Source of the DNA: an uncultured Desulfobacterales bacterium
Lineage (GTDB): Bacteria; Desulfobacterota; Desulfobacteria; Desulfobacterales; Desulfococcaceae
Direction of reading: 5' to 3'
Assembly: GCA_964573705.1 (NCBI GenBank)
Contig: CAZNLT010000009.1
Coordinates: 143-64,142, forward strand
Length of the DNA: 64,000 nucleotides
Below the pieces are notes generated by a model. The model ran no database searches. It was given only the letters and a program-made list of their open reading frames with translations, and was not told the DNA's origin. The translations under genes were made by a program, and so were the position numbers. This document shows positions 7,341 to 38,111 of this stretch, one piece after another. Positions within the stretch are counted from its first letter, which is position 1; every line of letters starts with the position of its first letter.

Positions 7341-8053
7341 CGAATCACCTGATTCTGAAGATCCAGGCGGTAATTGAAGTGGCGCAGAAAGTTCATTCCC
7401 AGAAGCCCGTCATGCCCGTCGGCCGCTCCCTCGAAGTCGAGAATCCCGGCGATCGGGTTTTCCACCCGATTGGCGCCTACCTCGATGTAGCTCAGCCGGG
7501 CGATTCGGGTGTCGATGATTTTTCCGTCGGCCACCTGGGCTTTGGCCTTTTTGAAATCACGTATCCGGAGTTGTTCGGCGATGCGGTGGTGAATCGCGGT
7601 AATGGAGGCGCCGGTGTCCAGGATCAGGGTGATTTGCACCTTCTGGGTGCCGTAGCCCAGATGGACCGGGACCAGAATCTGATTCCCCCGGACCTCGATG
7701 GCGGTTTCTTTCATCCGCTGCTTTTTTTCGGCCAGTTCCTGTTCCCGTATTCTGCGGCGGATTTCAAGCTGTTCTATGTACTCCCGATAAGACCGCCGCC
7801 GTTCGGCCTCCGCGGCCTGATCCTGCTCCTTCTTGACCTGCTTTTCATCTTCGGAAAGATGGTCATATTTTTCCCGGTAGGTTTTTACATCGAAATGGTA
7901 TTCGTCCGGCACCTTGGTGAGGTCGTCCACGAAGTGGGTTTTGCCTTCCTTGTCGGTGAATTTGTAGAATTCGGCCCGGACCGGATGCGAAAACAGGGCG
8001 AAGAGGAGCATTTCCCCGACGAGGAGGGCGAGTAATCCGAAATTTTTTATCAT
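7328..8053 (-). CDS. Retropepsin-like (clan AA) aspartic protease with a DUF4124-like N-terminal module and a charged coiled-coil
   Basis: The ATG at 8053 (MIKNFGLLALLVG..) gives a signal peptide. FYKFTDKEGKTHFVDD resembles DUF4124. LILDTGASITAI is the D-T/S-G-A aspartic protease motif. The upstream in-frame extension to 8188 overlaps the CPBP gene. Confidence 0.75.
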   Translation of the reverse strand: MIKNFGLLALLVGEMLLFALFSHPVRAEFYKFTDKEGKTHFVDDLTKVPDEYHFDVKTYREKYDHLSEDEKQVKKEQDQAAEAERRRSYREYIEQLEIRRRIREQELAEKKQRMKETAIEVRGNQILVPVHLGYGTQKVQITLILDTGASITAIHHRIAEQLRIRDFKKAKAQVADGKIIDTRIARLSYIEVGANRVENPIAGILDFEGAADGHDGLLGMNFLRHFNYRLDLQNQVIRWDP

Positions 8054-8109
8054 AAACCTACATGTTCCTTTCAACGCATGCAACAATGCTTTATCCCCAC
8101 CGCGGTCGG

Positions 8110-8787
8110 CTACCAGAATGCCCATTCTCCGCTCATTAGAACGTAAATTCCCAGCAGCAGATTGGTGATCCCGTGGGCGATAATGCACATCCAGAGGCTG
8201 CGAGTCTTATAGAGCAGAAGGTTATAGAGAAATCCGGCCACGATGCCGGCCAGCCACAGGTTGTGCTCGGTGCCGAAGAGGGCGGCCGAGATCAGAAATG
8301 AGGGCCAGGAAAAGGTGCCCAGCTGAACGGTGGTAAAATTTGGATTGATGATGTAGCGAAGGATGAAAGACCGCCAGAAAATTTCTTCGAAAACCGGCAC
8401 CACGACCGCGGCTCCGAAAAGACGAATTGCGATGAACAGGTAAAACCACGGATCGGGAAGGGTCCGGGGATTATAGGCATCCCGATCCCCCATGACGGCG
8501 AAGTCCCAGTCCATTTGAATCCAGAGCACGAACACCAGCACCCCGATGCCGGCGGCATACAACAGATCCCGGGTTTTGAACCGGTCTTCTTGCACTTCAT
8601 CATAGGTGGGCCAGAACCAGGCCAGGGCCGCCATTACTCCGAGAATGCGAATCGGATAGGTGAGGGCGATCAGATGGTCGGCCAAGGGGCCGGGAGGCAG
8701 AGCTTTGCCCAAAAGATCATGAATTACAATGAACAGCATATAGACGCCAAAGGGGAGGACCCGCGGAAACCAGGGCTGTCGTATCAT
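8110..8787 (-). CDS. CPBP-family (CAAX/Abi) intramembrane metalloprotease
   Basis: The start at 8787 (MIRQPWFPRVLPFGVYMLF) gives a polytopic membrane protein with CPBP motifs EEIFWRSF, FGTEHNLW and HGITNLL. Confidence 0.8.
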   Translation of the reverse strand: MIRQPWFPRVLPFGVYMLFIVIHDLLGKALPPGPLADHLIALTYPIRILGVMAALAWFWPTYDEVQEDRFKTRDLLYAAGIGVLVFVLWIQMDWDFAVMGDRDAYNPRTLPDPWFYLFIAIRLFGAAVVVPVFEEIFWRSFILRYIINPNFTTVQLGTFSWPSFLISAALFGTEHNLWLAGIVAGFLYNLLLYKTRSLWMCIIAHGITNLLLGIYVLMSGEWAFW

Positions 8788-8981
8788 GTGGCGAACTCCT
8801 GAAGTGGTTGAGCAGTTGATTGTAAATCCTGTAGCCGATTCAGACCCCTTTTTCAAGCTTTTTCCAGGAAAAATCAGACCAGGAAAAAGGCGGCTCCGGG
8901 CAGGGGGCCAGGACAAATGCGGTGGGCTCATTGTCCGGAAAAAGAGTTTTTGTTGAAGTCAAGGTGAAAGCGGAAGCCCTG

Positions 8982-9057
8982 AATTGAAGAAGGGGCGGCC
9001 CCTATGGCCGCCCCCAAAACAAAGGAGATAGGAAGAAAGAAGGAGGAAAATTACAGC
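8982..9057 (-). ncRNA. Candidate ~75-nt CU-rich small RNA (or the 5' attenuator of the CPBP operon)
   Basis: Bounded by a sigma70-like promoter (9064-9093) and the 8992-9014 terminator. The predicted RNA is ..UUUUCCUCCUUCUUUCUUCCUAUCUCCUUUG.. with anti-Shine-Dalgarno-like CCUCC/CUCCU tracts. No ORF is present. Confidence 0.25.
8992..9014 (-). terminator. Rho-independent terminator candidate (perfect 9-bp GC stem, 5-nt loop)
   Basis: GGGGCGGCC-cctat-GGCCGCCCC. On the minus strand the stem is followed by UUCUUCAAUUC. On the plus strand no U-run follows. Confidence 0.55.
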
Positions 9058-9063
9058 TGACTA

Positions 9064-9093
9064 TTTCTATTGCAGTTTGAATGCCAATGTCAA
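9064..9093 (-). promoter_or_regulatory. Sigma70-like promoter candidate (TTGACA-N18-TAGAAA) with an A/T-rich upstream tract
   Basis: Minus-strand reading: ..atttaattttttcTTGACAttggcattcaaactgcaaTAGAAAtagtcag. Confidence 0.35.
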
Positions 9094-9136
9094 GAAAAAA
9101 ATTAAATCTGAAATAATTCAAGGCGCTTAAAAGAAT

Positions 9137-9219
9137 TTCAAATGATTTGAATCATCCCGAAAACCGGCTGCGGTTACAAATTTTGTAGGTTTTGCCCCCG
9201 ATCTTTACAAATTTTGTAA
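9137..9219. repeat. Three palindromic boxes: TTCAAATGATTTGAA, plus two copies of TTACAAATTTTGTA spaced 31 bp apart
   Basis: 9137-9151 is a perfect 15-bp palindrome. 9174-9187 and 9205-9218 are identical 14-mers, each containing the palindrome TACAAA-T-TTTGTA. All lie upstream of the 9064-9093 promoter candidate. Confidence 0.6.
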
Positions 9220-9238
9220 CCCGTTCTGCCTGTTTTGC

Positions 9239-10003
9239 TCATCGAAGCCGCCGGGTCTGGCGGGAAAAGGATTTCACCCGGTCCGACATGAACTTGGCAC
9301 AGGTCGGGCAGTAGTGGTGCTCTTCCTTCACATGGGGATGGAGACCGGTGCGGGCTTCGATGTGCGCCAAAAATTTCGGTGTGGCGTATCGCTTGCCGCA
9401 CGCCTCACAGATCTCCAGGGGATGGCGGCCGATCACCCGGTCCCGAATCGATATGGTCCGGATATTGTCGAGGTCCTCCATTCGAATCACGTCGGTGGGG
9501 CAGATGTTGACGCAGGTGCCGCATCCGATGCATTTCCCTTCAATCGGCGCCACATAATCGGCCCCGTCTTGTTTTTCCATTCGAAGGGCCGCCGCGCCAA
9601 CGATCTCTTTGCACACCCGGACGCAGAGACGGCACCGGATGCATCCGTCGGGGGGCGGGCCCAAATCCACCCCGTAGTGGGCTGCCAATTTCCGAATTTT
9701 CATGGATTGCGGGGCCATGGTGAGGAGTTTTCGAAACGCCTTGATCCGCGCATTGTCGACCAGTTCGCTTCGGGTTTTGACGGACAGCCCCTCCTTTACT
9801 TTCAGAACACAGGAGAGGATGGTGGTGGCCCGCCCCGAGGAGCCGGTGACCTCCACCGCGCACAACTTGCAGGCCCCCGAGGGCTGAAGCGCGGGATGAT
9901 AGCAGAGGGCGGGAACATCGATTCCATTGGCCCGGGCCGCCTCCAGGACGGTTATCCCCTTTTCGACCGAATGTTCCACTCCGTCGATGATGATGGTGAT
10001 CAT
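9239..10003 (-). CDS. 2Fe-2S plus 4Fe-4S iron-sulfur protein (NuoG/HndD N-terminal-like)
   Basis: 254 aa. MITIIIDGVEHSVEKGITVLEAARANGIDVPALCYHP..SGACKLCAVEV is the NuoG-type 2Fe-2S module. CIRCRLCVRVC and CIGCGTCVNICP are ferredoxin-type motifs. Confidence 0.85.
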   Translation of the reverse strand: MITIIIDGVEHSVEKGITVLEAARANGIDVPALCYHPALQPSGACKLCAVEVTGSSGRATTILSCVLKVKEGLSVKTRSELVDNARIKAFRKLLTMAPQSMKIRKLAAHYGVDLGPPPDGCIRCRLCVRVCKEIVGAAALRMEKQDGADYVAPIEGKCIGCGTCVNICPTDVIRMEDLDNIRTISIRDRVIGRHPLEICEACGKRYATPKFLAHIEARTGLHPHVKEEHHYCPTCAKFMSDRVKSFSRQTRRLR

Positions 10004-10030
10004 GTCTCCTCCTGACCGATTCTCGGTGGG

Positions 10031-10243
10031 CTAATCCTCCAGCACCCGCAGGCAGTCCTGGGGCAGACGGTGGGTCCCCTTGCCTTCCAGGCTGACCTCG
10101 ACCAGGGCCTCCGGATCATTGACCGAGGTATCCGGGTCCACCACGATGCCGTGGCGACCGATGTATTCATCCATGAAACTTTTCCAGCTTTCGTCGGACG
10201 AGCGCTGGAAGACTTCGACCCGTTGACCTCTGCGAAATGCCAT
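10031..10243 (-). CDS. Small hypothetical protein (70 aa) within the oxidoreductase operon
   Basis: Tightly spaced between two Fe-S/flavoprotein genes (gaps of 9 and 27 nt), with coding-like composition. No recognisable motif. Confidence 0.55.
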   Translation of the reverse strand: MAFRRGQRVEVFQRSSDESWKSFMDEYIGRHGIVVDPDTSVNDPEALVEVSLEGKGTHRLPQDCLRVLED

Positions 10244-10252
10244 TTTGCCCCC

Positions 10253-12427
10253 TTATTTTGCGGACGGAATGTCCACGGTTGCGGTTGCACTCTTTTTTCG
10301 AAGACAGGCGTCGCAGACCATTTTATCCGCCGCGACCACCTCGCCGACCGGTTTGATCCGCTTCTGAATATAATCCAGATACCGGTTGGGACCCATTACG
10401 GCCCCGCATTCCGTGCAGTGGATGAGCTTCTGCCGGTTGAGGACGGTGCCGCACAAAGAGAGCACCCGTTCCCCGTTCTCGTCTCGAATCTGCATGGCCT
10501 GGTTGGGACAATTGTTGGCGCAGGCCCCGCAGGCGATGCACCGTTCCTGAGTCTTGCGGAAATCGGTTTCCACCGGGTGGTCGAAATCGAAATAGCCCAT
10601 CTGCAGCGCGTCCACCCCCATTTTATCCCGGCAGACCTCGACGCACTCTCCGCAGCGTCGGCAGATATCGCACCGCAGACACCGACGGGCCTCTTCCCGA
10701 ACCGCATTTTCGGGATACCCCAGCTCCACCTGCTGAAACGTGGTGCGGCGTCGATCCAGGTTCAGCAGCGGCATTTCCGGCTGCTTCAGAATCATCTTGG
10801 TGGAGGCGGGCACCTCGGTGCAGGGAACCCGGTCCCGGCGCACCGGCACCGGCGGCATTTTCGGCTGGGGGATACCCTTCAGAAACCGGTCGATGCCCTC
10901 GGCGGCCCGTTTGCCGCCGCCGATGGCCTCCACCACCGTGGCCGGGCCGGTGACCGCGTCTCCGGCGGCGAATATCCCGGGTTCGGAGGTTTCCATGCTG
11001 ACCATGTTGACGTCGATGGTGTTTCGCCGGGTCCAGGCCAGTTCGGTCAGCTCCAGCATGGTCTCTTTGTCTACCTGTTGGCCGATGGCCCCGATGACGG
11101 CGTTGGTTTCGATGACGAATTCACTTCCTTCAATGGGTACCGGCGACATCCGTTTGCTGCCTTCCCGGGCCACCAGTTCGGCCCGCAGGCACCGAAGCCC
11201 GGTAGTTTTTCCGTTTTCTCCCACGATCTCCACCGGTACGGTCAGAAAATCGAACCGAATACCTTCCTCTTCGGCCTGTTCAACTTCTTCTTCGTCGGCG
11301 GGCATTTCGGCCCGGGTCCGGCGGTAGGCCAGAATGATCTCTTCACTGCCTAGACGCAGGCTGGTTCGGGCCGCGTCGATGGCCACATTGCCGCCCCCGA
11401 TCACCACCACCCGTTTGCCGGGGCGGCGGCGTTCTCCGAGGGCCACCCTTTTGAGGAAATCGATGGACTCGATCAGGCCGTATTCGGTCTCTCCCGGAAT
11501 GTTCAGTTTAAACGCCTTGTGGGCCCCGATGGCGAAGAAAAAGGCGTCGAACCCCTCTTCTTTCAGCTCCTCGAGGGTGAGGTCTTCTCCGAACCGGGTG
11601 TTGAATACGAACTCCACCCCCAGATCTTCCAGCATGGCCACCTCCCGGTCGATCACCTCCCGGGGCAGCCGGTACCGGGGGATGCCGGCCAGGATCATGC
11701 CTCCGGCCGTGGGAAGCGCTTCGATGATTCGGACCCCGTATCCCTTGAGGGCCAAATAATAGGCGCAGCTCATTCCGCCGGGGCCCGCCCCGATAATGCA
11801 GACCTTTTGGCCTGTGTCCGGCTCCTTGGGCGGGTTTTCATACCGCCGTTCGGACATGGCCCGTTCGGCGGCGAATGCTTTGAGAAATTTGATGGAGATC
11901 GGCTTGTCGATTCGCCCCCGGACGCACATGAATTCGCAGGGCCGGGTGCAGACCAGACCGCAGACCCAGGGAAAGGGATTGTCCTTTCGAATCACCTCGA
12001 TGGCCTCGGCATCCTTGCCTTCCCCGATGAGGGAAACATAGGTCGGAACGTCGATTCCGGAGGGGCAGGCCATCTGGCAGGGCGCCGGCGCCAATTTGAC
12101 GCAGGCCCCGGTGGGGCAGTTATGGGTTTCCACATGGCTGATGAATACTTCGCGGTATTCATTCAGGGACTTTTGAACCATCTTACCGGCTTCGATGCCG
12201 GCCTGGATGGGGCTGTCTTCGGTCAGTTCACCGGCCAGGGATTCGATGGCCGGCAGGTGCTCTTCACCGGCCCGGCCCCAGGCTACGTCTTCCAGCAGTT
12301 CATGGACCTCTTCGGCGATCCGGCGGGTTCGGGGATGGGTCAGCCGCCCCGACTCGATCGTCGCCTCAAGGGCCGAAATGGTGTCGGTGACCGGGCAGGT
12401 TTGATCCGCGCAGGTTTGATTCGGCAT
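10253..12427 (-). CDS. NAD(P)H-dependent FAD/Fe-S oxidoreductase, GltD/NfnB-like, with C-terminal ferredoxin domains
   Basis: The ATG at 12427 (MPNQTCADQ..) follows AAAGGAGGGG. The GltD-like core includes CQMACPSGIDVPTYV, NPFPWVCGLVCTRPCE and the dinucleotide folds VCIIGAGPGGMSCA and VVVIGGGNVAIDAA. C-terminal CLRCDICRRCGECVEVC and CIACGACANNCP. The ORF extension to 12754 overlaps the upstream gene. Confidence 0.85.
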   Translation of the reverse strand: MPNQTCADQTCPVTDTISALEATIESGRLTHPRTRRIAEEVHELLEDVAWGRAGEEHLPAIESLAGELTEDSPIQAGIEAGKMVQKSLNEYREVFISHVETHNCPTGACVKLAPAPCQMACPSGIDVPTYVSLIGEGKDAEAIEVIRKDNPFPWVCGLVCTRPCEFMCVRGRIDKPISIKFLKAFAAERAMSERRYENPPKEPDTGQKVCIIGAGPGGMSCAYYLALKGYGVRIIEALPTAGGMILAGIPRYRLPREVIDREVAMLEDLGVEFVFNTRFGEDLTLEELKEEGFDAFFFAIGAHKAFKLNIPGETEYGLIESIDFLKRVALGERRRPGKRVVVIGGGNVAIDAARTSLRLGSEEIILAYRRTRAEMPADEEEVEQAEEEGIRFDFLTVPVEIVGENGKTTGLRCLRAELVAREGSKRMSPVPIEGSEFVIETNAVIGAIGQQVDKETMLELTELAWTRRNTIDVNMVSMETSEPGIFAAGDAVTGPATVVEAIGGGKRAAEGIDRFLKGIPQPKMPPVPVRRDRVPCTEVPASTKMILKQPEMPLLNLDRRRTTFQQVELGYPENAVREEARRCLRCDICRRCGECVEVCRDKMGVDALQMGYFDFDHPVETDFRKTQERCIACGACANNCPNQAMQIRDENGERVLSLCGTVLNRQKLIHCTECGAVMGPNRYLDYIQKRIKPVGEVVAADKMVCDACLRKKSATATVDIPSAK

Positions 12428-32090: not shown

Positions 32091-34859
32091 ATGGCGGCTA
32101 AAAAGAAAAAGCGAAAAGAAAAAGGGACCTACAAACAATTTGAAAACCTGTCTTTTGATGATATTGTTCAAAAAATTGAGAATGCGCTTTCCTCTGAAAA
32201 TCCCCGGGACGCCCTCTATACCCTGAAATTTGCCATGAAAAAATTCGGGGAATCCGCCCCGATTCGGTCTCTTTTTTTTCGGGCATATCTGCTGCGGGAG
32301 AAACAGCTCAGAGCCAAATCGCTGCATGACGAAGCCGATGCGGTTCGGGAGCTGGCAAACCGGTTCCTGCCTGAATTCGATCAAATGTCGGAAGCGGTTC
32401 TGATCGATTACATATCCAACGCATCTGAAAAAAAGGCGGTCGAAGCCTATGCCGGTTATCTGAAAAACAGGGCCAGGTCTCCGAAAATCGAGCAGACTCT
32501 GGCTCATCGCCTGTTCATAGGCCGGGATTGGAAAGCCGTCGACATATTGGAGACGGACCACCCGCTCCGCCGGGACGCGGGCCCGGTTCAAAAGGCGGTG
32601 ACTCTGATGAACGATGCGGCCTGGGAACAGGCCCTGGATGCCTTGAACCCGATTCCCCGAACCTCCTCCTATGCCTCGATTCGGGTGTTCTGCCGGGCCA
32701 TGGCCTCTTTCTTCAGGGGGGATGACAAAACCGCGTCGCGAGCTTTGGAGATGATTCCCTCCGATTTTCCCCTTTCCCGAACCATCGGGGACCTCAAGCG
32801 GATTCTCCGTGAATCCACCCCGGAGGATGAAAAAAGGGCCGCCATGGAGGCGGTGGGTTACCTTTGGGACGGGCCGGTCAATCTCCAACGGGACATTCAA
32901 GACCTGATCGAGTGCATCGATCATAAACGCTTCAAACAGGCGGTGGAAAGGGTTCAGGCAGTCGCCTCCGCCTTCAATCCGTCGGAACCGCTGAGGGTGA
33001 CCACCTTCATCACGGAATGCCTGTGGCGGTTTTCCGCTACGGGGCGGCTGGAAGACTACGATTTCCAAAAGATGGCTCAGGCCCTTCTGCCCAAAAAAAT
33101 AATCGAGCCGATGTTTGTCAAGGTCCGCCTCGTCAGCAGCATCAAACCGTTTACATCGGCGGGCTTGTACATTTCCGAACTGGACAAGGAGTTCCCCGAT
33201 CCCGAAGAGCGAAAAATCGCCCATGCCCTGACTCTTTTGCAGACGGCTATCTATCTATTCGCACAGGACGGGCACATGCAGTTTCGGGTCGAACGACCGG
33301 CTATCGAAAAATACCGGGAACCACTGGGGATTCGCTCCGATACTTACGAAGGGGCCCTCCTGGACATGGTTTGCTTCAGCACCCGCATCGATCCGGGAAA
33401 CCGAAAAGCCTATGAATTTTTGGCCGATCTTCCCAGAAATTCCAGAGAGGACAAAAAAAAGGTGGAGAGCGGCTTCGGTGTGATGCTGAAGGAATTTCCG
33501 GATGATCCCTTCCCCTGCCTGGAATTGGCTTCTCTGTTCTACGAAAGCAATGCCTTCCGAAAGGCTGAAAATATTCTGGAGGAGGCGATGAAACGGGCCC
33601 CCCATGACGCCCGGGTACTCGATCGGCATGTCCTGTCGCTGCTCATTTCCTCTGAAATCAATATACGTCGGGAGAAATATCATCTGGCGGAGCGGGACCT
33701 GGACCGGGCGGCATCTTTTGAAAATAAAAAAATGGAACCCTTTGTTCTGGAGAAAAAACTCCTGTTCGACCTCAAAAAGTCCGCGAAGCATCTCGATCCG
33801 GATGAGCCCGATATGAAAAAACAGAGGTCGCTCTTCGGAAAGCGACGCACCCCCGCTTCCCTGATAATGGAAACCCTGACCGAATACTCCCTGTATGACC
33901 GGCTCAAGGTGCTGTCTCTTCTGCTCCTGGATATTCATGGAAAAAAACTGCCCAGGAAAACGGTTCTTCTGAAATCGGTGAATCCGCTTCTGGATGCGGA
34001 GCTGAAAGCGGGCGTCAAAAGCCTCGGCTCATCCGAAATATTCCAACTGCTCACTCCGCTCCCGAAGGAATATGATCCCCTTTATGAAAATCTACATCCA
34101 GCGGCCCTGTTGATCGAAAGATCCAAGTCGCTTCTGAATGTGCTGGACACCGAGGATGCCCTGCGCCTGTATGAACGCATTCTGATCCCCTCACTCTACA
34201 CGGTCATCATAAAGGACCTTCGGTCCCGGGCCAAAAAGGCATCAGAGAAGGACCGCCGGCTTTTGGATTTTTTCCGCGTGACGGTCGACCATCTCTCCGG
34301 TAAAAAAGAGGATTCCGAATTGTTTTATGAGGTGATCGATGAGGTGGAAGAAAGGCCGACCCTCGAAGCGCTGCGCGCCCTGTCCCGACGGCTGGCCCGG
34401 CATGCCGCGGGAAGGCTTCGAATGGCCCTTGAGGAGTTCGATTTTGAGATTCTGGATGAACCCATGGGGTTTCCGGGGCTGCCATTCGATCTCGACCTGG
34501 AAGACCTTATTCCCCGGATGGAAGACCTCATAGGGGATATGGAGGACGACGAATCGGATGAGGAGCGGCTGTTTGAAGCGCTGGAGGTCCTGTCGAAAAT
34601 CGGAATGACCGAAAACGACGCCTTCAAAGAAGAATTGGGGTTCGTCATCGAGGAGGCGGAAGACTGGGTCGACTCCCTCGAAATCAGGGGATATCCGAAC
34701 CACCTGATCAAGCAGATGCGGAACATGGTGTTTAAAACCGACCCGGATGTCAAGCGGGAATTGAACATGATCGGCCGGGTATTGGAACAGACCGGCACGC
34801 ATTCCAAACTCTCCCGGGAGGCTCAGGTCCTCTTGTACGGGAAGGCCCGAAAGAAATAG
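32091..34859 (+). CDS. Large (~922-950 aa) all-helical / TPR-like repeat protein, first gene of the non-canonical Hsp70 operon
   Basis: The ORF is open from GTG 32007. The ATG at 32091 (MAAKKKKRKEKG..) follows GGGCGGAGCG. The protein has a Lys-rich N-terminus, TPR-like stretches (e.g. LELASLFYESNAFRKAENILEEAMKRAPHDARVLD) and an acidic C-terminal third (DLDLEDLIPRMEDLIGDMEDDESDEE). No enzymatic motif was seen. Confidence 0.8.
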   Translation: MAAKKKKRKEKGTYKQFENLSFDDIVQKIENALSSENPRDALYTLKFAMKKFGESAPIRSLFFRAYLLREKQLRAKSLHDEADAVRELANRFLPEFDQMSEAVLIDYISNASEKKAVEAYAGYLKNRARSPKIEQTLAHRLFIGRDWKAVDILETDHPLRRDAGPVQKAVTLMNDAAWEQALDALNPIPRTSSYASIRVFCRAMASFFRGDDKTASRALEMIPSDFPLSRTIGDLKRILRESTPEDEKRAAMEAVGYLWDGPVNLQRDIQDLIECIDHKRFKQAVERVQAVASAFNPSEPLRVTTFITECLWRFSATGRLEDYDFQKMAQALLPKKIIEPMFVKVRLVSSIKPFTSAGLYISELDKEFPDPEERKIAHALTLLQTAIYLFAQDGHMQFRVERPAIEKYREPLGIRSDTYEGALLDMVCFSTRIDPGNRKAYEFLADLPRNSREDKKKVESGFGVMLKEFPDDPFPCLELASLFYESNAFRKAENILEEAMKRAPHDARVLDRHVLSLLISSEINIRREKYHLAERDLDRAASFENKKMEPFVLEKKLLFDLKKSAKHLDPDEPDMKKQRSLFGKRRTPASLIMETLTEYSLYDRLKVLSLLLLDIHGKKLPRKTVLLKSVNPLLDAELKAGVKSLGSSEIFQLLTPLPKEYDPLYENLHPAALLIERSKSLLNVLDTEDALRLYERILIPSLYTVIIKDLRSRAKKASEKDRRLLDFFRVTVDHLSGKKEDSELFYEVIDEVEERPTLEALRALSRRLARHAAGRLRMALEEFDFEILDEPMGFPGLPFDLDLEDLIPRMEDLIGDMEDDESDEERLFEALEVLSKIGMTENDAFKEELGFVIEEAEDWVDSLEIRGYPNHLIKQMRNMVFKTDPDVKRELNMIGRVLEQTGTHSKLSREAQVLLYGKARKK

Positions 34860-34874
34860 ACAGGAACGGATGAT

Positions 34875-35174
34875 ATGCTGCCCTATTATTATATTCTGAA
34901 TGTGTCTGAAGATGCCACCGACGAAGAGATTCGAAACAGCTATCTGCGGCTGGTCAAACAGTATACCCCGGAAAAGGACCCGGTTCGGTTTCAACAGGTG
35001 ACCGAGGCTTATGAAGCCCTTCAGAACCGGCGGCGGCGCATTCTCGGGAAGATTTTCGGCGGCCTCAGCATCAAAGAACCGGAGAACGGGCTGTTGACCC
35101 TGGCCGCATCCCGCCGACCGGTCCGGCGGCCGGTGAGTCTGCAAACCTTGTTTGATGCGGAAAATGAAGACTGA
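34875..35174 (+). CDS. Minimal J-domain-like protein with HPD replaced by TPE
   Basis: 99 aa. YYYILNVSEDATDEEIRNSYLRLVKQYTPEKDPVRFQQVTEAYEALQN aligns position for position with J-domain helices I-III (canonical ..KYHPDKNP..). No G/F, zinc-finger or C-terminal client-binding domains. Confidence 0.8.
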   Translation: MLPYYYILNVSEDATDEEIRNSYLRLVKQYTPEKDPVRFQQVTEAYEALQNRRRRILGKIFGGLSIKEPENGLLTLAASRRPVRRPVSLQTLFDAENED

Positions 35175-36030
35175 TATCCGCCGGAGAATCGCCGCCTGCC
35201 GTAGATGGCTCGGTGACATGATGCGGGAGCGCCTGGTTCGGCCGGCGCAACGGTATTTTTCGATTCAGCATAGACCTTCCGCCGAAACGGACTTCAATGA
35301 AGAAAGCGGGTGGAAGGAAAAGGCCATGGCCGATTTCCGCACCTGGCTGGAATCTCTTCCCGAAACCCCTCCGCCCGCTGAAGATCCGGGACCCGAATCA
35401 GCCGATCTCCTGACGCTGCTTGCCGAATTCACCGCCCTTCAGCAGGAGGTGCGGCTGCAGAACCGGGAGCAGAACAAGGGGGTATTGGCGCTCAATCGAT
35501 TCATTGAGGATTTTCAAAAAACCGATGCGACCCTCGCTTCGATAGGGGATAAAAACCGGCGAATGGCCGAGGCGATCACCGCACTGGCCGGGGAATTGGA
35601 AAAAGTGGAAGATCGTATTCGAAACACGGTTGAAAACCGAGACGACGCCCGCCAGGCCCAGTGGAAGCAGGACATCGAAAAAAGCGCCGTTCGTCCCTTT
35701 CTGGATGTACGGGACGCCTTGGTCCGCGGGTTGAAAGCGGCCCGGGAGGCATCCGGGTCCGGCGGCTTTTTCAGGGCTTCGCCCAAAAATATCGAAGGGG
35801 TGATCGAAGGCTATTCCATGGCCCTGCGCCGTTTTGACCGGGCCCTGGCGGTGGTCGGGATTCGTCCGGTGGAGGCGGTGGGCAAACCCTTCGACCCCAA
35901 AATCATGCGGGCGGTGGACACCCGCCCCGGCCCTGAAGAAAAAAAAGGAATCGTGGTCGCAGAGCAGCTCGGCGGTTTTGTCCGCGGGGACGAGGTGATT
36001 CGAACCGCCGAAGTGGTGGTCGTATCCTAA
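35152..36030 (+). CDS. GrpE-like nucleotide exchange factor
   Basis: The helical segment LLAEFTALQQEVRLQNREQNK corresponds to GrpE AEFEN-type helices. The C-terminal beta domain GIRPVEAVGKPFDPKIMRAVDT..GIVVAEQLGGFVRGDEVIRTAEVVV matches the GrpE G.pFDP..HeA..v..GY.l.drvlRpA.V.V pattern. Start is uncertain: TTG 35152 or ATG 35155/35164 overlap the J-like gene, and ATG 35326 follows GGAAGGAAAAGG. Confidence 0.75.
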   Translation: MMRKMKTDIRRRIAACRRWLGDMMRERLVRPAQRYFSIQHRPSAETDFNEESGWKEKAMADFRTWLESLPETPPPAEDPGPESADLLTLLAEFTALQQEVRLQNREQNKGVLALNRFIEDFQKTDATLASIGDKNRRMAEAITALAGELEKVEDRIRNTVENRDDARQAQWKQDIEKSAVRPFLDVRDALVRGLKAAREASGSGGFFRASPKNIEGVIEGYSMALRRFDRALAVVGIRPVEAVGKPFDPKIMRAVDTRPGPEEKKGIVVAEQLGGFVRGDEVIRTAEVVVVS

Positions 36031-36080: not shown

Positions 36081-37826
36081 ATGGAACCGATCGTCGGTAT
36101 CGATCTCGGAACCACCAATTCCGAAATCGCTTATATCATCAATGAAAATGCGGAAGTGTTGACCGACCGGGATAACGGCATCTTTCCCTCCTGCGTCGGA
36201 ATCGATGCCCAGGGCAAAATCATCGTCGGCGCCGAAGCCAGAAACCAGGCGGTGCTGGCACCGGAGCGGACGGTGATGTCGGTAAAACGGCTGATGGGGA
36301 CGGAGACCCAGATTCCCATGGGAGAAAACCTGTATCGGCCCCAGGAGATTTCCGCCTTCATCCTGAAAGCCTTGAAGGCCCGGGCCGAAAAGGTGCTGGA
36401 CCGGGCTGTGTCCAAAGCCGTGATTACGGTGCCGGCCTATTTTACCGACGCCCAGCGGCACGCCACCCGGGAAGCGGGCCGGCTGGCCGATCTGGAAGTG
36501 GTGCGGATCATCAATGAACCCACCGCCGCGGCCCTGGCCTATGAAAGCACCCAGTCGGAACCCAGACGCATCCTGATTTACGACCTGGGGGGCGGCACCT
36601 TCGACGTCTCCATCGTCAAAATCGAACAAGGCGTGGTGGAGGTGCTGGCCAGCACCGGAGACAATCACCTGGGCGGCGACGATTTCGATCAAAAGATCGC
36701 CGACCGGCTGATGGAATACTGCACCGGTGAGCTGAAGCTGACCGACAGGAATGATCCGGTTTTGAAGGCACGTCTGAAGCGTGCCGCGGAAAAGGCCAAA
36801 ATCGAGCTCTCCTCCGCCCCCTACGCTCGAATCGAAGAAGACCACCTCGGCAAACGGGGTTTCAAGGATGTGCATCTCTCCTACGAACTTTCCCGGGAGG
36901 ATTTCGAAGAGATGATCGAAGACGACCTGGCGCGTACCATGGAATCGGTCAATAAGGCGCTTAAGGATTCGGAGTCGCTGCCCTCGGCCATCGACAAGAT
37001 CATCCTGGTGGGCGGGTCGACCCGGATTCCCAGAATTTCCGCCATGCTGGAGGAAAAATTCCAAAAAATGCCTCACGGCGAGATCGATCCGGATCTCTGC
37101 GTGGCATTAGGGGCGGCCATTCAGGCCGGCAGGGAAATGGGCCTGGACAGCTCCGGAATTTTGCTGGACATCACCCCCTATACCTTCGGGACCTCGGCCC
37201 TGGGGGAGGTGAACGGGATCCCCACCCACCATCAGTTCGTGCCGATGATCCGCAGAAACACCAAGCTCCCGGTCGCCAAAACCGAAGCCTTCTACACGGT
37301 CTATGACGACCAGGAGGCGGTGGAAATCAATGTGTACCAGGGGGAGGAACCGATCGCTCTCGACAACGTGCGGATCGGAAATTACCGGTTTGAACTCACC
37401 AAGGCGCCTCAGGGGAGCGTCATCCTTCTCAATTATGATCTCGACCTCAACGGGATTTTGAAGATCCAGGCGGTCGAAAAGAAAACCGGCCGCAAAATCA
37501 ACGCGGTCATCGAAAATGCCTTTTCCGAATTTTCCGAAGAGGCGTTTTCCGAGTCCAAGGAGCGGATCGCCGCTTTATGGGCTGAGGATGAGGAGGCTAC
37601 AACCGGCTTCAGCGGAGAGGTCGAGGCCGATCAGCTGGATATGCCGGAGGATATCGCCGAAACCCTGAACCTGGCGAAGTCAAAACTGGATGCCGCTCCG
37701 GAAGAGGATCGGGATCAGATGATCGACCTGATGGAGGATATCCGGGATTCGGTTCAATCCGGCGATCTTGAAAACGCGAAACGGCAGCAGGCCGAACTCG
37801 ATGACATCCTTTTTTACATCGGATAG
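36081..37826 (+). CDS. Hsp70-family ATPase (DnaK/HscC-like) with a shortened acidic lid
   Basis: 581 aa. IVGIDLGTTNS, VITVPAYFTDAQRHATREAG, VRIINEPTAAALAY, IYDLGGGTFDVSIV, ILVGGSTRIPRI. The SBD-beta is present (LLDITPYTFGT.., INVYQGE). After it only ~100 mostly acidic residues remain. Confidence 0.93.
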   Translation: MEPIVGIDLGTTNSEIAYIINENAEVLTDRDNGIFPSCVGIDAQGKIIVGAEARNQAVLAPERTVMSVKRLMGTETQIPMGENLYRPQEISAFILKALKARAEKVLDRAVSKAVITVPAYFTDAQRHATREAGRLADLEVVRIINEPTAAALAYESTQSEPRRILIYDLGGGTFDVSIVKIEQGVVEVLASTGDNHLGGDDFDQKIADRLMEYCTGELKLTDRNDPVLKARLKRAAEKAKIELSSAPYARIEEDHLGKRGFKDVHLSYELSREDFEEMIEDDLARTMESVNKALKDSESLPSAIDKIILVGGSTRIPRISAMLEEKFQKMPHGEIDPDLCVALGAAIQAGREMGLDSSGILLDITPYTFGTSALGEVNGIPTHHQFVPMIRRNTKLPVAKTEAFYTVYDDQEAVEINVYQGEEPIALDNVRIGNYRFELTKAPQGSVILLNYDLDLNGILKIQAVEKKTGRKINAVIENAFSEFSEEAFSESKERIAALWAEDEEATTGFSGEVEADQLDMPEDIAETLNLAKSKLDAAPEEDRDQMIDLMEDIRDSVQSGDLENAKRQQAELDDILFYIG

Positions 37827-37832
37827 CCAAGT

Positions 37833-38111
37833 ATGGACCGCTGCCCCACATGCCGGGCCGATTACCGGGGCGGGGATTTCTGCCACCGGTGCAAAACCGA
37901 TTTGAAGCCGGTGCTGGAGATCGAAACGCGGGCCGAAGACCACCGAACCGAAGCGGTTCGGGCGTTTCACCGGAAGGATTTCAGGTCCATGTATTATCAC
38001 GCCCGGCGGTCCCGGGCCTTGCATCGCACCCCTGAATCCGACCGGCTGCTGGCCTGTGCGGCCATGCTTTCCGGAAATTTTGGTCTTGCGATTTCCCTCT
38101 GGAATCCTTAG
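37833..38111 (+). CDS. Small zinc-ribbon protein (CxxC-N10-CxxC) with a helical tail, last gene of the Hsp70 operon
   Basis: 92 aa. MDRCPTCRADYRGGDFCHRCKTD.. The start is 6 nt after the Hsp70 stop. Confidence 0.6.
   Translation: MDRCPTCRADYRGGDFCHRCKTDLKPVLEIETRAEDHRTEAVRAFHRKDFRSMYYHARRSRALHRTPESDRLLACAAMLSGNFGLAISLWNP

Follow-up and report, generated by a model that had tools for sequence, protein, structure and literature searches.

A bacterial J-domain-like protein family with no His-Pro-Asp loop, encoded with its own GrpE-like exchange factor and Hsp70

Introduction

The His-Pro-Asp (HPD) tripeptide is treated as defining and indispensable for J-domains, and a bacterial gene whose J-domain reads Thr-Pro-Glu (TPE) in its place raises the question of whether such a protein can still act on an Hsp70. 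The gene (34875..35174, forward strand) encodes a stand-alone J-domain protein of 99 amino acids (aa), here called the J-like protein. It lies in a 64,000-nucleotide (nt) stretch of DNA from an uncultured Desulfobacterales bacterium (GenBank assembly GCA_964573705.1, contig CAZNLT010000009.1, positions 143 to 64,142), referred to below as the window. The J-like gene belongs to an operon that also encodes a GrpE-like nucleotide exchange factor and an Hsp70.

J-domains without HPD have been viewed as mainly eukaryotic oddities of "enigmatic" significance, and whether deviations from HPD are accidental or selected has been stated to be unknown (PMC13254874); one large J-domain survey dropped all sequences lacking HPD ahead of its analysis (PMC10410713). 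Here, the deviation is clearly selected, family-wide, and packaged with its own Hsp70 and exchange factor. Full-text literature searches found no paper describing the J-like family or the operon, and the family is apparently undescribed.

Results

The translation of the J-like gene begins MLPYYYILNVSEDATDEEIRNSYLRLVKQYTPEKDPVRFQQVTEAYEALQNRRRR, and its loop T31-P32-E33 (codons ACC CCG GAA; 34965..34973, forward strand) replaces HPD, sitting at H33-P34-D35 of Escherichia coli DnaJ in the alignment. The Pfam DnaJ model (PF00226) matched residues 4-55 with 48.6 bits (cut-off, 27.8 bits; E value, 9e-13), and phmmer against PDB sequences matched 35 J-domains, with "YTPEKDP" aligned on "YHPDKNP" of human DNAJA1. 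An AlphaFold2 model (mean predicted local distance difference test score, 71.7) contains the helix II/loop/helix III hairpin, with helices at residues 16-29 and 36-61. All 50 Foldseek matches listed for this model (of 80) were J-domains, including the DnaJ J-domain bound to DnaK (5nro_B; root mean square deviation, 1.6 Å over 52 columns). The initial annotation had called the protein a J-domain with HPD replaced by TPE; its quoted translation was reproduced, and Pfam, phmmer, and Foldseek all returned J-domains. By sequence and predicted structure, the protein is a genuine J-domain fold, and the loop lacks HPD. The same annotation had helices I to III aligning without gaps, which proved true only against DjlB and DjlC of E. 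coli. Between the loop and helix III, 6 residues (phmmer) or 8 gap columns (MAFFT) are absent relative to E. coli DnaJ, and 3 residues are absent relative to DNAJA1.

The J-domain covers approximately residues 1-58 and is followed by a conserved C-terminal extension (approximately residues 60-99), modeled by AlphaFold2 with low confidence as helices 69-79 and 89-98. Helix II differs from that of DnaJ at R19 (Glu) and K26 (Leu), and contains Tyr23-Leu24. The 99-aa protein has no G/F region, zinc finger, or client-binding domain, so it lacks the architecture of class A and B J-proteins, and its NCBIfam scores were 40 bits for TIGR02349 (cut-off, 377) and 21 bits for CbpA (cut-off, 403).

A first set of homologues, taken from a collection of 5.8 billion proteins, comprised 13 sequences down to 40% identity, and TPE was present in 13/13. 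In species-representative genomes, a scan located seven syntenic loci, every one of them in a Desulfobacterales metagenome-assembled genome, with TPE in six and SPE in one. Nine orthologues were compared by codon (TPE in eight and SPE in one); the motif codons varied (ACC/ACT/ACG or TCG; CCG/CCT; GAA/GAG), synonymous sites of the J-like gene were near saturation between clades, and the pairwise ratio of nonsynonymous to synonymous substitution rates (dN/dS) was 0.06-0.43. These values indicate that the J-like gene is under purifying selection. With the tripeptide preserved while its codons change synonymously, and with dN/dS well below 1, TPE is selected and not an accident.

A profile was built from 14 homologous sequences, all reading TPE and reaching down to 40% identity; its search against a library of 1.84 billion representatives (50%-identity clusters) yielded 279 matches below 1e-10. 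Motif counts were made on 141 proteins of at most 140 aa among the best 150 matches, many of them aligned over most of their length. At the position of DnaJ H33 (motif position 1), these 141 representatives have Pro (74), Thr (37), or Ser (24), and His in none; at P34, Pro in 138; and at D35 (motif position 3), Glu (98), Asp (24), Ser (11), Ala (3), Gly (3), or Thr (1). Position 3 is acidic in 122/141, and Pro plus acid is found in 87% of members. Other positions are similarly constant (Tyr in 139 at Y25, Leu in 126 at K26, Phe in 134 at F47, and Ala in 138 at A53). Within the best 150 matches, HPD occurred in long canonical J-proteins only. On these counts, TPE is a single variant of a [P/T/S]-P-[E/D] motif common to the whole family, with position 1 restricted to Thr or Ser in the window's clade. 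The initial annotation had allowed that orthologues in the same operon context might carry an ordinary HPD; this is contradicted by the absence of His from all 141 representatives and by the 26 J-like proteins at the loci examined, all of which read [PTS]P[EDS]. A Thr hydroxyl substituting for the His hydrogen-bond donor was considered and rejected, since it fits the window's clade and fails family-wide, where Pro is the commonest residue at position 1.

Of the 401 genomes sampled from the window's phylum, 13 had a full-length member (at least 81 bits), and canonical J-proteins stopped at 62 bits; given this count and the gap in scores, the family forms a discrete group with a patchy distribution. 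The source of one member assigns it to Magnetococcales, an order of Pseudomonadota and thus outside the phylum of Desulfobacterales, and the sequences recovered indicate that the J-like family is widespread in bacteria.

Five forward-strand genes make up the operon in the window. The lead gene (32091..34859) encodes a large helical/TPR-like protein, here also called the scaffold, and is separated by 15 nt from the J-like gene. The GrpE-like gene (35155..36030; 291 aa from ATG 35155) overlaps the J-like gene by 20 nt and is followed, after 50 nt, by the Hsp70 gene (36081..37826; 581 aa, HscC-like in build). A zinc-ribbon protein (37833..38111; 92 aa, beginning MDRCPTCRADYRGGDFCHRCK, with a weak Pfam DZR_2 match) is encoded by the final gene, 6 nt further on. 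Residues 127-291 of the GrpE-like protein match Pfam GrpE (78.9 bits), and residues 493-537 of the lead protein match Pfam TPR_19 (34.5 bits). The longest lead-gene open reading frame begins at GTG 32007 (950 aa); the lead proteins of relatives begin MAAKKKK or MAKKKK at an ATG, a poly-Lys N-terminus being common in the family, so the true start is probably ATG 32091, which gives the poly-Lys N-terminus MAAKKKKRKEKG and 922 aa. For the GrpE-like gene, the alternatives are ATG 35155, the start used by the closest relative, and TTG 35152, which lengthens the overlap to 23 nt. The initial annotation had placed the J-like gene right beside its Hsp70 and in overlap with the GrpE-like gene; the overlap stands at either start, whereas the Hsp70 gene lies two genes downstream.

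In relatives, the gene order is large helical/TPR protein, J-like, GrpE-like, Hsp70 of approximately 580 aa, and usually the zinc-ribbon protein (approximately 100 aa, CPxC...C.RC, after Hsp70 in most related loci). The large gene is directly upstream of the J-like gene in 22/25 loci; of the others, one complete locus (L014) does not have it there, and two loci are cut off. A GrpE-like gene is part of the operon at all loci, and in most of the related ones the J-like and GrpE-like genes share 4-38 nt. The same operon surrounds PPS, PPE, PPD, SPE, and TPE members: three distant loci (L041, L042, and L044, with PPS, PPE, and PPD) show the same order, with lead helical proteins of 750-960 aa and Hsp70s of 577-599 aa, and a fourth (L046, PPE) shows it up to GrpE, where the contig ends. 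At all 19 loci with sufficient flank, the family J-like gene is followed by a family Hsp70 gene. This pairing and the translational coupling of the J-like gene to the GrpE-like gene agree with the earlier suggestion of a partner dedicated to the operon Hsp70. No HPD J-domain was found within the operon of the window or of any related locus examined. The window's own genome holds separate housekeeping DnaK, GrpE, and HPD J-proteins; its six other J-domain proteins, when aligned, all carry HPD and are all encoded away from the operon.

The window Hsp70 matched Pfam HSP70 with 469 bits and scored below the NCBIfam cut-offs for DnaK (498 versus 648 bits) and HscA. In the DnaK-DnaJ structure, H33 bonds the L391 backbone carbonyl, P34 packs on P419, and D35 bonds R167 and Q378 (PMC8215388). 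In the window Hsp70, R142 corresponds to DnaK R167, N145 to N170, E187 to E217, Q348 to Q378, L361 to L391, D363 to D393, and P397 to P419, and these seven residues are kept in 19/19 paired family Hsp70s. Every Hsp70 residue that contacts HPD in DnaK is thus kept, and the J-site is intact. Position 206, which faces the J-domain, is Lys, Arg, Ala, or Val rather than Glu in 17/19 pairs: the window's clade has Lys or Arg, and most of the others have Ala or Val. The position of DnaK T417 is also variable among family Hsp70s (Lys in the window). Covariation of motif position 1 with Hsp70 residues 206 and 417 was sought in the 19 pairs; the pattern follows clades only, and nothing is concluded from it. 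In a tree of 25 sequences, family Hsp70s were apart from DnaK and HscA, and E. coli HscC fell on the family side on a very long branch with weak support (70/88).

Further observations concern the ends of the operon proteins. The window Hsp70 terminates in ELDDILFYIG (last nine codons, 37797-37823), and a C-terminal [D/E]-[I/L/M]-L-F-Y-[L/I]-[E/G] is kept in 18/19 family members, even where overall identity is down to 42%. The exception (L090) has LLYELER at its end, and the motif is absent from DnaK, HscA, and HscC. By analogy with EEVD, it may be a docking peptide for a TPR-like partner. Scaffold C-termini include QLSLF in L017 (6917-6981) and QLDLF in L044, with Q-x-x-L-F-like peptides in many other relatives; such ends match the consensus by which proteins bind the beta sliding clamp. 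The scaffold of the window ends (34794-34856) in ...REAQVLLYGKARKK, with no exact copy of the Q-x-x-L-F-like peptide.

Variation around the operon was also recorded. In Desulfobacterales bacterium HSG2 (L014:4119-7001), the J-like, GrpE-like, and Hsp70 genes are present with neither an adjacent upstream scaffold gene nor a downstream zinc-ribbon gene, and so the three-gene core can stand without its usual flanks, at least locally. Two loci of a groundwater "Deltaproteobacteria" clade (L009:11325-12899 and L010:5442-7016) encode a 524-aa AAA_16/ATPase_2-type protein after the zinc-ribbon gene on the same strand. On one ENA contig (L012:1012-3762), the GrpE-like (110 + 129 aa) and Hsp70 (340 + 251 aa) genes are fragmented, through either an assembly frameshift or decay of the copy. 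Some distant copies of the operon are near cas1/cas2 or insertion sequence transposases (L044:93-1952, L041:11906-12871, and L042:14105-14986). PADLOC defense models gave no meaningful match for any of the five operon proteins of the window. Elsewhere in the same genome (contig C137, approximately 7900-10400; L031 and L037), a second unusual Hsp70-like gene, inside a 1,575-aa open frame, adjoins another GrpE-like gene; its product lacks the J-site residues (R167 to Gln, Q378 to Tyr, and linker DIIQN), and no J-domain match was found on that contig.

Discussion

The explanation that we favor, and to which we give an even chance, is that the J-like protein would be a dedicated, co-evolved J partner of the operon Hsp70, docking canonically and still supporting the ATPase cycle. 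The wider proposition, that a widespread bacterial Hsp70 lineage may be switched on by J-domains that never carry His (xPE/xPD, where x is Pro, Thr, or Ser), is more tentative, and we put it somewhat below an even chance. An exchange factor is encoded in every case within the operon, which means that the ADP state has to be populated, and an HPD J-protein never is; our view is therefore that ATP hydrolysis would still be promoted by the J-like protein. The retention of Pro plus acid in 87% of members and the designed activator that works with NPD (PMC11928274) also speak for this view.

In such a machine, the J-domain would dock at the usual site of the operon Hsp70, formed by the nucleotide-binding domain, the linker, and the beta part of the substrate-binding domain (SBD-beta). 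Pro32 would orient the loop against P397 (DnaK P419), and Glu33 would reach R142 and Q348 (DnaK R167 and Q378), as the HPE of DjlC presumably does on HscC. Helix II would bind through a less charged, more hydrophobic face (Tyr23-Leu24), and the signal given by His33 would be weaker or carried by other contacts. The C-terminal 40 residues might hold the J-like protein on the scaffold or a client, and the altered interface could keep the operon machine apart from housekeeping DnaK/DnaJ.

Several facts weigh against activation by this protein. In each of the natural systems tested, ATPase stimulation is abolished by H33Q and H33A (PMC8215388, PMC13254874), and in simulation H33A binds but seems unable to activate (PMC13012618). 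Position 1 is most often Pro, which is unable to donate the hydrogen bond made by His; approximately 13% of members (PPS, PPA, and PPG) have no acidic third residue though their Hsp70 keeps R167; and DnaJ K26, which is needed for DnaK binding, is Leu in the J-like protein.

These facts bring forward a pseudo-J-domain as the first alternative, which we consider possible but on the unlikely side. Here, the protein would bind Hsp70-ATP at the canonical site without triggering hydrolysis, as a tether that parks the Hsp70 on the scaffold or as a brake, and hydrolysis would be triggered by a client, the scaffold, or a J-protein encoded elsewhere. A His that is never present and a position 1 where Pro prevails speak for such a protein, as do members without the acid that engages R167 (PPS, PPA, and PPG), and the conserved C-terminal extension suggests a docking role. 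The simulated H33A domain keeps binding and loses activation (PMC13012618), closely related designed binders with NPD inhibit (PMC11928274), and recruitment or competition by pseudo-J-domain proteins (pseudo-JDPs) has been discussed as an open possibility (PMC13254874). Against a tether or brake stands the private GrpE, whose constant presence and translational coupling imply that the cycle goes as far as the ADP state. The conservation of Pro34 plus acid in 87% of members also seems to exceed the needs of mere tethering, and no locus has an HPD J-domain in the operon, unlike the pairing of Pam16 with Pam18.

A J-fold taken over as a structural part of the scaffold complex, making no contact with the J-site of Hsp70, is very unlikely. 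The protein is tiny, its gene directly follows the scaffold gene (15-nt gap), and the positive patch of helix II is lost (R19 to Glu and K26 to Leu), all of which would suit a structural role. However, the Hsp70-contact residues (Y25, P34, F47, and the acid at position 35) are the best conserved in the family, the overlap couples the J-like gene to GrpE rather than to the scaffold gene, and DjlB and DjlC have the same uncharged helix II, yet DjlC activates HscC (PMC8215388).

Slightly less probable again is an action on housekeeping DnaK, where the protein would compete with DnaJ/CbpA or modulate them. The genome does have canonical DnaK, GrpE, and HPD J-proteins, and designed J-site binders that do not activate inhibit DnaJ-DnaK function in E. 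coli (PMC11928274). Against this, the family Hsp70 follows the J-like gene wherever the flank suffices (19/19), the J-like gene occurs in 13/401 sampled genomes of the phylum although DnaK is in nearly all bacteria, and the non-Glu residue at position 206 in 17/19 family Hsp70s suggests a private interface. Finally, an error of sequencing or assembly, a recent mutation confined to the lineage, or gene decay has nothing in its favor beyond the prior expectation of HPD invariance and is refuted by the same tripeptide in independent assemblies with synonymous codon differences, by dN/dS well below 1, and by His in 0/141 family representatives.

If the J-like protein does activate its Hsp70 as a dedicated partner, the role of His33 will have to be rethought, as His33 would be no universal requirement for J-triggered hydrolysis, and the operon would be a natural system that separates docking (Pro plus acid against R167, Q378, and P419) from the His-to-linker signal. 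If it does not activate, this would be the first bacterial Hsp70 system built around a pseudo-J-domain. Co-packaging with its own exchange factor makes the J-like/Hsp70 pair directly expressible and assayable.

Comparison with known systems

Pam16 forms a heterodimer with a true HPD J-protein, Pam18, and has DKE or DKS at the motif, so that Pro is lost too. The initial annotation had drawn an analogy with Pam16/Tim16, which is weakened by the absence of any HPD J-domain from the operons examined. The J-like loci have no such partner nearby, though one encoded elsewhere is possible (six HPD J-domain proteins in the window's genome). The J-like protein also differs from Pam16/Tim16 and from pseudo-JDPs such as DNAJB13 ("type IV") in that it keeps Pro plus acid and has a private Hsp70 and GrpE.

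AtcJ of Shewanella oneidensis carries HPD and works with housekeeping DnaK. In size, it resembles the J-like protein, being a J-domain protein of approximately 90-100 aa with a short C-terminal extension (21 aa), and its J-domain is called functional by its authors (PMC6715715). Identity with AtcJ was rejected, as the AtcJ model NF050028 (93 positions) gave 25.8 bits against a cut-off of 150. GrpS-SglK of Myxococcus xanthus was rejected as the same system because SglK, a protein of DnaK type, complements E. coli dnaK and has an unlinked J partner (PMC8265645; bioRxiv 10.64898/2026.08.28.747804). The GTPase/Hsp70/GrpE conflict systems (Kaur et al., PMC7159879) were rejected as well, the window having no GTPase, FNIII, or effector genes at the locus.

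The designed activator JDM37 stimulates Hsp70 ATPase with NPD at the position of HPD, and His is therefore not chemically indispensable (PMC11928274). JDM37 is, however, artificial and sequence-unrelated and was tested on human Hsc70, and sibling designs with the same NPD inhibit (PMC11928274).

The canonical DnaK-DnaJ-GrpE system has the same three functional classes that are co-encoded in the window, and the catalytic and allosteric residues of DnaK (D8, K70, E171, T199, R167, D393, and P419) are kept in the window Hsp70. The window operon differs in its added scaffold and zinc-ribbon genes and in a J-like protein without HPD.

The closest likeness in build is to HscC and its J-proteins, encoded in E. 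coli at ybeQ-ybeR-djlB-ybeT-ybeU-djlC-hscC (DjlB is YbeS, and DjlC is YbeV). The J-like protein aligns to DjlB and DjlC with no gap column, against eight with DnaJ, reading EIRNSYLRLVKQYTPEKDPVRFQQVTEAYEA there, and has in common with them "AYL" (Leu in place of DnaJ K26), Glu as the third motif residue, and the short loop "PExDPxxF". J-domain identity to DjlB (36%) is nonetheless lower than that to DnaJ (44%). DjlB and DjlC keep His (HPE), whereas the window protein has Thr, and they are tail-anchored membrane proteins (PMC8215388) of 475 and 483 aa, whereas the J-like protein has 99 aa. HPE has been described as the sole tolerated replacement of HPD, in approximately 1% of J-domains (PMC13254874, PMC10410713), and HscC is activated by DjlC but by none of DnaJ, CbpA, and HscB (PMC8215388). 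The Glu of TPE and the lost basic residue of helix II thus have a functional precedent in DjlB and DjlC, which work with HscC while carrying HPE and Leu.

The hallmarks described for HscC are a deletion of DnaK residues 76-101 and an insertion of 4-8 aa in loop L1,2 of SBD-beta (PMC8215388). The window Hsp70 has the same 24-residue deletion as HscC (DnaK 76-99 in our alignment) with identical boundaries, an L1,2 insertion of 8 aa, Pro-Tyr after the linker, and a length of approximately 580 aa; the deletion is also common in non-proteobacterial DnaKs. Identity of the window Hsp70 to HscC (33%) is no higher than that to DnaK (36%). The GrpE loop is missing from HscC, which is believed to work without GrpE (PMC8215388), whereas the window Hsp70 has a full-length loop, in keeping with its private GrpE. 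Both have repeat proteins encoded next to them, Sel1/TPR at the E. coli HscC locus and TPR-like in the window. Taken from sequence comparison, the overall machine is a J-domain/Hsp70/GrpE system of HscC-like build; the likeness of its J-domain to those of DjlB and DjlC is one of common build and not of family membership, and the new element is the loss of His. The finding ties the poorly understood HscC/DjlB/DjlC system of E. coli to a far broader group of specialized chaperone operons.

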